Positions 4,449 to 7,400 of a DNA stretch of 64,000 nucleotides are shown here, in pieces. Made by a program: the position numbers and the translations under genes. A model generated the notes under the pieces. The model ran no database searches. It was given only the letters and a program-made list of their open reading frames with translations, and was not told the DNA's origin. The DNA comes from a virus, in IMG/VR virus record IMGVR_UViG_3300019762_000006, positions 25,999 through 89,998 of that record. One strand, written 5' to 3'. Numbering within the stretch: position 1 is the first letter of the stretch; the number at the start of each line of letters is the position of its first letter.

Positions 4449-7400
4449 ATGCCAACTCAAGAAGAACTTCTAAACGCTGTATTCGTAAATACAAATAACA
4501 CACCAAAACAAACAAATAATTCACAATATGTATACGATGCAGATACACTATACCAAAATGGTAATGGGTACAGAGTAGAAGGGATAGATGCTCCTGAGAT
4601 GCCATCCTATGCACTAAAGCAAGAAAGAATTGCAAAGGCACTAAAAAGCAAGCTTGGAAGATTCGTTAGTAAAGCAACAGCTGGAGAAGCTGCTAAACTA
4701 GAAGCTGAACTAAGTACACTGAACTTCAATGGGATTGACTCAGGATTCCAAGAAACAAGCTTTAATGACAATCAACTACAACCTACTTACCAAGAAACTC
4801 CACAATCCGATTCAAAAGGGGTATATGGGAGAGATATACTCAATAACCCAGCATACCAAAATGAACTTGTGGCTAAAGGATATGCAATACCTGCGTTTGA
4901 TAACCAGACACCAGAAGGTCAAGCACTAATGCTAAATGCAAAGAAACAAAAGCTTGGGCTTTGGGCAGATCCGGAATATGCTGCTGAAATGGAAGCAGTG
5001 GCCAATAAAAGAGGTACTAGTACAGTAGAAGAGATACCTGAATACAATATACTAAGGGGCGTGGGTTCTGCTGGATTAGATGTAGCAGCTAAGGTTGGTG
5101 GACTGATTGGTGAAACTATTGAGTCTGCTGGTGAAGGAATTGGAGTAGATGCTGTTAAAAACAGCGGAACAGCATTGCAAAATGCCTTTACAGAGTTCCA
5201 AAGAAAACAGTATGGTAAAGAGATAACTGGGTATGTAAGTAGAAATGTAGATGAGCTTAGCGCTGAAATAGACGATACAATAAAAAAAGATGGATACATG
5301 TCTGCAATAGCTAAGGCTGTGACAGACCCAAGATCACTGGAAGTACTTGCAAATAGTGTGCCTGAAATGATAGCACTTGCGGCTAGTGTTGGAGGTATGG
5401 CTGTAGCGAATGTGAACAATAACATAAATATGGCCGAAGCTGAATTAGGTAGAAAATTAGACACAAAAGAAAAGGTGTTGAGTGCTAGTGCTAGTATAGT
5501 TGGTACGTACATGGATAGATTTGGTGACAAATTGGCACTTAGTGGGATGAATCCTACTAAAGAAGCACTAAAGACTGTGATAAATAAAATGAGCCAAGAA
5601 GGTAAAAATACACTTAGTAAGAAGTATGGTAAAGAGATACTTACAATAAGTTCTGCTCCACTTAGACTAGCTAGTGCAGGTGCTATTGAAGGATTGACTG
5701 AAAAAGGTCAAACAATGCTAGAAACTGCTGCACAAACTCCTAGAGTATTCGAGGAAGGATTTACAAAAGAAGAACTAGATGAATCCAATGTTGCTGGTGT
5801 ACTTGGGGTTACTATGGGTACACAAATGGCAAGTCCAAAAGTTGTTTATGATGTAGCTACGAAAACAGTGCCAAGTCTTCCAAAGGCTAGTAAAGATATA
5901 CTAGAACGAGCTACAGAGACAGAAGCACAACGTAAAGTAAGAGAAACTACTGAAGTAAGTGCTCCAATTAGAGAGGCTGCAATAGACAGTACACTAAAAG
6001 GTGACACAGACAGTGTGGTAAAATCAGCTGAGGAGATGCATGGTAAATTAGCTAAAGAGTTAGATGGAAGTGCTCCAAAGAAGTATACATACAATGTGGT
6101 ACTATCAAATGCACTGAATAGAGCACACGAGTCGAATGATGACACAGCAATAGCTAATGTGTACAAAACAATTGGTGATTTAAATAACCGAAAAGATGTA
6201 GACTTCAAAGCATCTGAAATGGTAGATAGTAGAATGTACGAAGCTACTAAGGAGTTTCTGGACTTAGTCAACAAAAATGACTTAACAGCAACAGATAAAA
6301 TGGAAGCAATAAACTTAGGTAAAAAGATAGGTGAGAATGCTACTGAACAAAGTGCTAGTAAAAGTAACATACTAACTGAAGTAAGATTGATGAAAGAGCA
6401 ATTGGAAAAAGAGAAAAAAAGCTTAAAGTCAGTTAAAGGCTCAGAAGACTTTGGTGGACCAATAGATAAGCTAATGAAAATAGTAGATGATTACTTAGAA
6501 AATAGAGATGCTGAAAAAGTGAATGCTCAAGTAATGGACTTAGGGTACATAGAATTGGATCCCACAAGTGGTGTACTAAAAGCAGATCCAAATAGACCTG
6601 GGTTACGTGTATATGCTAAAGAGCTAGAAAAACAGATGCTAAACCCTAACACTAATAAGAACTTACTAGATAAAAAAGTAGTTGCTAGTGGACAAGTAAC
6701 AATACCAAAGCTAGCTAAATTTGCTAAGAGTAGACTAGATAAACTAAATCCATACAAAGATAATTCTGCGTACCAAACAAGCTCATTACTAAACACACTC
6801 AAGGCCGAAAATGAACAAATGAGTAACACAATAGTAGAACTAGTGAAGATTGCTAGTAAATTAGAAATAGACAAAGAAATAAAAGATAAGTATGTAGCAA
6901 AGCTAAAAGAAGCTGGTAAAAGTGCTGTAGAAGCAAATAAAGAGATGCTAAGAAGAGAAAAGTTAATAAATGACACAACTAAACCAAGTGGAAATGGACA
7001 ACTTGCGTTCCAAGTAGACCCAGATGGTACTGAATCAATAAGACTGGTAAGTGGTGAAAGTAACACAAAAGTTGCTGATGTAGTAGATGGTAAAGTTGTG
7101 CCAATTGCACAAGAACAGAATGCGGAACAAGTTGCAGATAAACCTCTAAGTAATGCTTCAATAGTTGAAAAAGCTCCAACTAAAGAATCAATGAAAGAAG
7201 AGGGTGTAAGAAATGCTAAAAATGTGACAACTGCACCAAAGCCAAAGCAAACAGTAGTGCAATGGTTAACAGCACAACTGGATGAAATGGTTGATAACCA
7301 AAAAAAGACAATGGTAGAAGCTGCTAAAGAAATAAATGACTACTTAAGTGCACAAGGATTAGATAAAGATACAATTACTAAGTACAATGTAATACTTAGA

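Follow-up and report, generated by a model that had tools for sequence, protein, structure and literature searches.

A staphylococcal nuclease domain heads the split virion RNA polymerase of an uncultured N4-like phage

The window analyzed here is a 64,000-nucleotide stretch of viral DNA, bases 25999-89998 of IMG/VR record IMGVR_UViG_3300019762_000006, which is a linear contig of 89,998 bases with an estimated completeness of 84%. It comes from an uncultured, N4-like phage of a microbial mat. A single frame on the + strand of the window, 4449-12002, encodes a protein of 2517 amino acids (aa), termed P0001, and an AAGGA-type ribosome-binding site is located upstream of its ATG at 4449. P0001 carries the core of an N4-type virion RNA polymerase (vRNAP), and its N-terminus is formed by a domain of the staphylococcal nuclease (SNase, or thermonuclease) family, hereafter called the head. 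The locus comprises these elements:

4449..12002, + strand: first vRNAP open reading frame (ORF), 2517 aa, with SNase head, hydrophobic conserved region, long variable region and N4-type RNAP core (ORF call; PHROG 2206)
4527..4973, + strand: SNase (thermonuclease) domain core, aa 27-175 (head-family profile A2 against the Protein Data Bank (PDB); PF00565 in 19 of 25 family members)
5019..5948, + strand: Gly/Ala-rich conserved region, aa 191-500 (homology to SNase-bearing and SNase-less relatives)
8733..11936, + strand: N4-type single-subunit RNAP core, aa 1429-2496 (PHROG 2206, E 3.2e-42; tblastn)
12005..16009, + strand: second vRNAP ORF of 1334 aa, corresponding to the C-terminal domain and bearing HExxH at aa 296 (PHROG 2206)

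The identity of the polymerase rests on PHROG 2206 and on tblastn, because a phmmer search of the RNAP core against the PDB returned no match. Residues 1429-2496 of P0001 align to positions 1062-2033 of the 3406-position PHROG 2206 "virion RNA polymerase" profile (E 3.2e-42). The ORF at 12005-16009, which lies in a different frame, aligns to positions 2269-3378 (E 3.5e-69). The two ORFs cover separate parts of one profile; therefore, the polymerase is split in two. The nuclease-headed ORF holds the N-terminal region and the RNAP core, and the C-terminal domain resides in the next ORF. An initial annotation of the window, made from the letters, had overlooked this split, as well as the mosaic history of the head described below. 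By tblastn, the core matches 130 deposited phage records at <60% identity. The best 25 of these 130 records are 21-24% identical, all within Schitoviridae-type vRNAP genes of Vibrio, Pseudomonas and Salmonella phages, and the four inspected records among the core matches are Schitoviridae.

Both the RNAP core and the C-terminal domain (CTD) of the window polymerase are homologous to those of N4 gp50 and other Schitoviridae vRNAPs, and P0001 has an N-terminal hydrophobic stretch that resembles the membrane-spanning helices reported for N4. However, N4-like vRNAPs consist of one chain of ~3500 aa that includes the N-terminal domain (NTD), RNAP and CTD, whereas the window polymerase consists of 2517 + 1334 aa. 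Relatives of P0001 are mostly 2000-3000 aa long as well. The stop of the first ORF and the start of the second are two bases apart (window 11982-12013). Unlike this near-contiguous arrangement, the polymerase ORFs of a relative, IMG/VR contig L009 (107,713 bases), at 10001-16837 and from 17477 onward, are separated by ~640 bases. P0001 contains one cysteine in its entire length, at position 2515, and the second ORF starts with M-G-C.

The initial annotation had proposed that an SNase domain is fused to the N-terminus of the vRNAP, on the basis of five motifs in SNase order. All five are in frame within the ORF at 4449-12002: YVYDADTL (aa 27-34, nucleotides (nt) 4527-4550), YRVEGIDAPE (aa 41-50), GVYGRDIL (aa 124-131), NELVAKGYA (aa 138-146) and AKKQKLGLW (aa 164-172, to nt 4964). 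A whole-protein profile (A1) searched against the PDB produced 20 matches of coiled-coil-type noise (best E 0.0095), with no SNase and no RNAP among them. Therefore, a domain-only alignment (A2) was built from 25 N-termini, namely the window and 24 of its 31 relatives, from which three near-duplicates and four fragments were excluded.

The A2 profile retrieves 61 PDB sequences at E<=1, and the 60 that are listed are all S. aureus nuclease or thermonuclease (best E 1.4e-6). The match is composed of two in-register stretches, in which profile positions 26-62 align to SNase residues 10-53 and positions 106-187 to residues 55-145. The Pfam family PF00565 is matched by 19 of the 25 A2 members at E<=0.01 (best 9.8e-8). 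Two members, P0014 (30.2 bits) and P0010 (25.1 bits), exceed the cut-off of 21 bits and align across profile positions 3-107 of 107. Together with the PHROG 2206 match of the carrier protein, these comparisons bear out the proposed fusion and confirm, at the family level, that the window domain is a genuine SNase domain.

Other searches contributed less. A low-confidence ESM Atlas model (pLDDT 0.49) is available for P0017, a 413-aa relative that is 64% identical, and the five listed sets of its structural neighbors all carry PF00565. With TM scores of 0.28-0.29 by query and 0.40-0.46 by row, these neighbors point to SNase as a weak lead and not as a test. Among NCBIfam models, only sub-threshold similarity to "calcium-activated nuclease EcnA" was detected (15.7 and 19.6 bits; cut-off 180), and a literature search on that nuclease yielded nothing relevant.

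Alignment with HMMER places residues D30, D32, T33, R42, D47, P49, E50 and R128 of the head at SNase D19, D21, T22, R35, D40, P42, E43 and R87, respectively. The active-site features of the head are distributed as follows:

4536..4598, + strand: first active-site cluster, D30, D32, T33, R42, D47, P49 and E50 (conservation in A2; HMMER alignment)
4599..4823, + strand: enlarged segment between the active-site halves, aa 51-125, with a conserved lysine-rich stretch, an AGEAA-type helix and a variable loop (A2)
4824..4832, + strand: YGR motif, in which R128 corresponds to SNase R87 (R128 in 25 of 25)
4938..4964, + strand: C-terminal helix motif ending in GLW, with A164, G170 and L171 invariant and W172 conserved in at least 90% (aligned to the SNase stretch ending at W140)

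Ten positions are invariant in all 25 members of A2 (D30, D32, R42, P49, E50, R128, G144, A164, G170 and L171), although identities to the window in this alignment are as low as 26%. A further set is conserved in at least 90% of the members (T33, D47, K57, K68, G79, A82, N133, P148, W172 and M181). The equivalents of the Ca2+ ligands are D32 (SNase D21; 25 of 25) and D47 (SNase D40; at least 90%). The equivalents of the catalytic residues R35, E43 and R87, which are R42, E50 and R128, are present in register in every member. Conservation of the catalytic set among homologues, the lack of which the initial annotation had named as refuting its proposal, is thus borne out by six residues present in 25 of 25 sequences and by T33 and D47 at 90% or more. 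With its complete catalytic set intact in sequence, the domain is probably catalytically competent.

The head shares with S. aureus nuclease (Nuc; PDB 1snd and 1ey0; PF00565) the order of Ca2+ ligands and catalytic residues, as well as the YGR and GLW-type motifs. It differs in that S. aureus nuclease is free and secreted, whereas the window domain makes up the first 190 of 2517 residues. It also has 34 extra residues and carries A48 in place of T41, although several relatives have Thr at this position. In SNase, T41 binds Ca2+ through its backbone. The head lacks cysteine.

E50 and R128 are 78 residues apart, compared with 44 residues between SNase E43 and R87; therefore, the domain is ~34 residues larger than SNase. 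The insertion had been estimated initially at about 50 aa. The additional length is smaller and is spread over two places. The first is a conserved stretch directly after GIDAPE (K57, K68) that continues into the AGEAA-type stretch (G79, A82), which in our reading corresponds to helix 1 of SNase. The other place is a variable loop at approximately aa 97-123, of which 22 residues are absent from several relatives.

The fusion of head and polymerase is not an assembly artifact. In a microbial-mat run that may be of the source sample, a 16,551-base Logan contig covers window positions 3000-12947 without a difference. In a second microbial-mat run, depth is present in 30 of 30 bins and 25 of 26 pieces are at least 95% alike, including pieces at 4238-4565 and 5019-5392. 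Sequencing runs X3 and X4 have no cover over the head region and are evidence in neither direction. No RNA run is listed among those that contain the sequence. A chance motif match or a chimeric assembly might be invoked, given that the Pfam score of the window sequence itself is below threshold and that the locus is known from metagenome assembly only. However, 32 proteins from several sources share the head, the E-values of the A2 profile are significant, and the contig of an independent assembler spans the junctions. We therefore regard an artifact as extremely improbable.

The head is not part of the known N4 system. The PF00565 profile was searched in six frames at E<=1 and matched none of four reference Schitoviridae genomes (N4, Pseudomonas phage PA26, Salmonella phage FSL SP-076 and Vibrio phage 1.026.O). 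The same scan matched the genome of the window weakly (16.9 bits, below the cut-off of 21) and matched 6 of 14 control genomes. When the heads of the window and of P0012, another head-bearing protein, were compared by tblastn with 50,697 phage records, no match was obtained at E<=1e-3 or at E<=0.1. The suggestion that the head falls outside the N4 vRNAP paradigm therefore agrees with both surveys. Megablast of window positions 1-20000 also gave no match, and a literature search found no paper that joins virion RNA polymerase, Schitoviridae or ejection protein with SNase or thermonuclease.

Related heads are present in large proteins from environmental sequence collections. A word-indexed protein search with the head found 15 proteins, and an exhaustive phmmer search of 1.84 billion representatives found 21 at E<=0.001, including the query. 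Of these, 14 are 1384-3382 aa long and seven are 73-965 aa. All of the long proteins carry the head match at their N-terminus or close to it, and the 21 include no canonical nuclease that stands alone. In total, 32 proteins from Logan, ENA and JGI assemblies share the head, either at the N-terminus of long proteins or as fragments. Scans of IMG/VR recovered only four other contigs with the head. Two further IMG/VR loci match only aa 24-55 and encode small proteins with SNase-like motifs, and locus L007 matches aa 28-173 at 26%.

The nuclease head is the best-conserved part of the locus. It is 44-71% identical to the heads of seven relatives, whereas other segments of these proteins are 15-26% identical, except for aa 191-500 of P0003 (65%). 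In three IMG/VR relatives, identity to the window is 65-70% over the head, whereas the gene upstream, the core of the RNAP and the second ORF are at 23-50%.

When the RNAP core (aa 1429-2496) is used as the query, a different set of relatives emerges. In all, 97 proteins were returned, and 69 of them (P0034-P0102) have cores that are 56-67% identical. Within the set of 97, the head is confined to P0001 and P0022, and the A2 profile finds no match in the other 95 at E<=10 with default filters. The head-less proteins resemble P0001 from approximately aa 300 to the end at 45-52%. P0001 therefore combines a polymerase body from one lineage with a head whose closest relatives are attached to bodies of only 23-24% identity. 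Pairs of head-bearing proteins exhibit the same discordance:

P0003 and P0004: N-terminus 77% identity, remainder 23%
P0006 and P0008: N-terminus 64% identity, remainder 89%
P0006 and P0031: N-terminus 25% identity, remainder 42%

The history of the head is therefore discordant with that of the polymerase in both directions, which on sequence grounds indicates that the head has been swapped between distant polymerases. PHROG 2206 is matched by four of the five head-bearers tested (P0001, P0014, P0005 and P0016). The fifth, P0012 (2089 aa), has an SNase head followed by the conserved region (49% identical to window aa 196-471), and its remaining ~1500 residues match no PHROG family and no other head-bearer.

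In three sister polymerases that lack an SNase and are closely related to P0001 in the core, a different enzyme is found near the N-terminus. The domain PF21277 (T6SS VgrG3-like peptidoglycan hydrolase; E 1e-26 to 5.6e-29) occurs at aa 250-429 of P0048 (E 5.6e-29), aa 242-421 of P0057 and aa 254-433 of P0103. In each case, it precedes the start of homology to P0001. The sisters thus resemble the window in that the largest ejected protein has an enzyme module preceding its conserved hydrophobic region. They differ in that their substrate is the cell wall and not nucleic acid, and they give no match to the SNase profile with default filters. The presence of a hydrolase where the window has a nuclease means that this N-terminus is a mounting place for different enzymes. 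T7 gp16, with its N-terminal transglycosylase, presumably has the same arrangement of an enzyme ahead of the hydrophobic region of an ejected protein.

By eye, the first ~240 aa of P0035, P0036, P0038, P0040, P0047, P0048 and others contain DADT or DADS, NAPE or DAVE, and YGR strings in SNase order. A decayed SNase head in the SNase-less sister clade was considered but is not supported by profile tests. In hhalign, A2 against A4, re-aligned N-termini and A5 gave probabilities of 0.9%, 1.0% and 1.9%, respectively. The A5 profile searched against the PDB found nothing relevant. Pfam searches found no families in P0066, P0091 and P0034, and no SNase in P0048, P0035 and P0047. An unfiltered hmmsearch of 128 proteins gave weak, in-register N-terminal hints in P0048 (i-E 0.0014), P0035 (0.021) and P0047 (0.14).

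The distribution of the head bears on the possibility that the nuclease processes the DNA of the phage itself, for example by trimming or nicking a genome end during ejection or packaging. The initial annotation had also listed this option. Going by the N4 model of a 2026 structure paper (PMC13434306), the head would be tethered where the genome exits the channel, a location that would suit such a role. However, the head is absent from 95 of 95 other core relatives, from N4 and from the three other reference phages, and the slot in relatives holds a cell-wall hydrolase, which is an enzyme aimed at the host. Because the closest relatives and the reference phages manage without it, the head is not part of the core mechanism of ejection or packaging, and we consider processing of the phage's own DNA to be highly unlikely.

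We instead favor, with moderate confidence, the reading that the head is an active, virion-delivered nuclease aimed at nucleic acid other than the channeled genome of the phage. By analogy with N4 gp50, the two-piece polymerase would be loaded into the capsid and would leave it through the tail when infection begins. The head, which is small and free of cysteine, would refold outside the capsid and would then cut host DNA or RNA, or the incoming DNA of a rival, in a Ca2+-dependent manner. The nuclease would occupy an exchangeable enzyme slot at the extreme N-terminus, ahead of a hydrophobic region that probably inserts into the membrane.

Several observations weigh against this reading. The initial annotation had named PF00565 as a check, and the family does provide support through 19 of 25 members and through P0014 and P0010, which score over the cut-off. 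However, the window domain alone reaches only 18.3-18.5 bits, below the cut-off of 21, and the match is limited to its C-terminal half. When aa 1-200 were searched against the PDB as a single sequence, only five sugar epimerases (E 0.23-0.92) and no SNase were returned. The Tyr and Gly of the YGR motif vary across relatives (Y/F/H and G/S/N/D, respectively), and the 34 extra residues adjoin the active site. The high conservation of the head, combined with its discordant history, could reflect recombination as plausibly as selection. No PHROG family was matched by P0012; therefore, the head is not strictly an accessory of polymerases, and it may also reside on giant proteins that are not recognizable as such. 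A non-specific nuclease that is co-packed with the genome and tethered beside it as it enters is a hazard for the phage. Moreover, SNase-type enzymes are typically secreted and need Ca2+ at levels that are usual outside the cytoplasm, which argues against simple degradation of host DNA in the cytoplasm.

Some of these points would be accommodated if the SNase fold did not cut but served as a nucleic-acid clamp, holding the leading genome end or single-stranded promoter DNA at a membrane-anchored N-terminus. Lysines K57 and K68 are conserved in the enlarged segment that adjoins the active site, the Tyr and Gly of YGR are variable, and the N4 polymerase uses single-stranded hairpin promoters, as described in PMC4496689. 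However, a pure binder needs neither Ca2+ ligands nor three catalytic residues, yet these are invariant or nearly so in 25 sequences that range down to 26% identity. A clamp is therefore unlikely, and an active nuclease remains our preferred reading.

The surroundings of the head offer hints to the compartment in which such a nuclease would act. The most hydrophobic segment of P0001, aa 296-323 (nt 5334-5417), lies within the conserved region at aa 191-500, and this region may correspond to the membrane-spanning helices in the NTD of N4. According to PMC13434306, the N4 NTD has putative membrane-spanning helices at aa 224-278 and can enter nanodiscs. It is unresolved by cryo-EM and is predicted to form two helical subdomains, unlike the N-terminus of P0001, which begins with an SNase domain. 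In the model presented there, the NTD belongs to an inner-membrane complex, whereas the cytoplasm is where the RNAP and CTD refold. That paper does not use the word "nuclease".

That sister polymerases carry cell-wall hydrolases in the same slot, and that the head comes before the hydrophobic region, suggests exposure of the head on the periplasmic side. Such exposure would fit a high Ca2+ requirement. It would also explain why no immunity protein is required while this non-specific enzyme is made in the cytoplasm and packaged next to the genome. In its strict form, this idea holds that the head stays outside the inner membrane and cuts only DNA that passes through the periplasm outside the phage's own tunnel. 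Peptidoglycan, the substrate of the hydrolases that occupy the same N-terminal region in three sisters, is only periplasmic; the head comes before the segment of highest hydrophobicity; enzymes of the SNase type are typically secreted and require high Ca2+; and the N4 NTD forms an inner-membrane complex in the 2026 model (PMC13434306). However, the Kyte-Doolittle maximum of this segment, 1.46, is below the usual transmembrane threshold of 1.6. In addition, a hydrolase could work in transit and yet end in the cytoplasm, and no periplasmic substrate of the head is known. The ADP-ribosyltransferase and RNase domains that Iyer et al. 2017 (PMC5512222) described as fused to N4-like RNAPs are, moreover, proposed to target proteins and RNA of the host. 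Action restricted to the periplasm is thus a doubtful, although not negligible, version of events.

The active-nuclease reading can also be taken one step further. We tentatively suggest, as a possibility that we would not rank as likely, that the head is a calcium-gated exclusion nuclease delivered by the virion, which would be silent at the sub-micromolar Ca2+ of the producing cell and switched on at the Ca2+-rich periplasmic side on entry. An SNase-type enzyme would have been recruited for this silence in the producing cell, since no immunity protein would be needed and replicating phage DNA would be spared. On entry, the nuclease would destroy DNA that is not shielded by the trans-envelope tunnel, such as rival genomes or transforming DNA, or it might reach host nucleic acid through the pore. 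The N-terminal slot would then be a hot-swappable warhead position that moves between polymerases of only ~23% identity.

The theme of enzymes attached to injected polymerases is itself known. Iyer et al. 2017 (PMC5512222) reported fusions of N4-like RNAP modules to lysozyme, ADP-ribosyltransferase, a BECR-fold (PBECR1) RNase and a zincin peptidase. In theme, P0001 resembles these polyvalent proteins, in which a giant injected protein joins an N4-like RNAP to other enzymes that are effectors of the early phase. A nuclease and an RNAP share one chain in the window, and the HExxH motif of the second ORF lies where that paper places the peptidase. By analogy with Iyer et al. 2017 (PMC5512222), this motif, at aa 296, may mark a putative zincin peptidase. 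In the main text of PMC5512222, the words SNase, staphylococcal, thermonuclease and micrococcal are absent.

Several of these findings are new. The SNase domain joins the repertoire of accessory domains carried by injected polyvalent virion polymerases. In addition, the head is better conserved than the polymerase and, judging from the comparisons above, has been exchanged between distant lineages. The peptidoglycan hydrolase that three sister polymerases carry in the same N-terminal region is a further new finding. Specialists are familiar with the general theme, but not with an SNase enzyme in this setting, with the mobility of the head or with the puzzle of self-protection that it raises, namely how a non-specific nuclease can be packed next to a genome without damage.

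To our knowledge, N4-like vRNAPs are the largest proteins that are pushed through a phage tail, and here their extreme N-terminus is a slot for ready-made enzymes. If the head is active, the cell or its envelope would contain a nuclease ahead of all phage gene expression, with a bearing on host shut-off, phage-phage competition and evasion of defense. SNase is a classic protein that folds rapidly and reversibly without disulfides. For this reason, the nuclease head could serve as a handy natural reporter of unfolding and refolding during protein ejection.

Three ORFs lie upstream of the polymerase on the + strand (window 725-4392) and encode proteins of 592, 173 and 442 aa. The 592-aa protein matches only phrog_25216, which is of unknown function, and neither of the other two upstream ORFs has a match among PHROGs. 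The C-terminal 183 aa of the 442-aa protein are retained at 32-50% in relatives. Judging by position, the upstream ORFs could correspond to gp51 and gp52, the ejection proteins of N4, or could encode an inhibitor of the nuclease. Directly after the second polymerase ORF, a 294-aa ORF (16242-17126, + strand) matches phage endonuclease and HNH endonuclease families (phrog_681, E 9.6e-71; phrog_559, E 6.6e-38). In the rest of the window, genes for ribonucleotide reductase, ligase, helicases, primase and DNA polymerase are located on the other strand.

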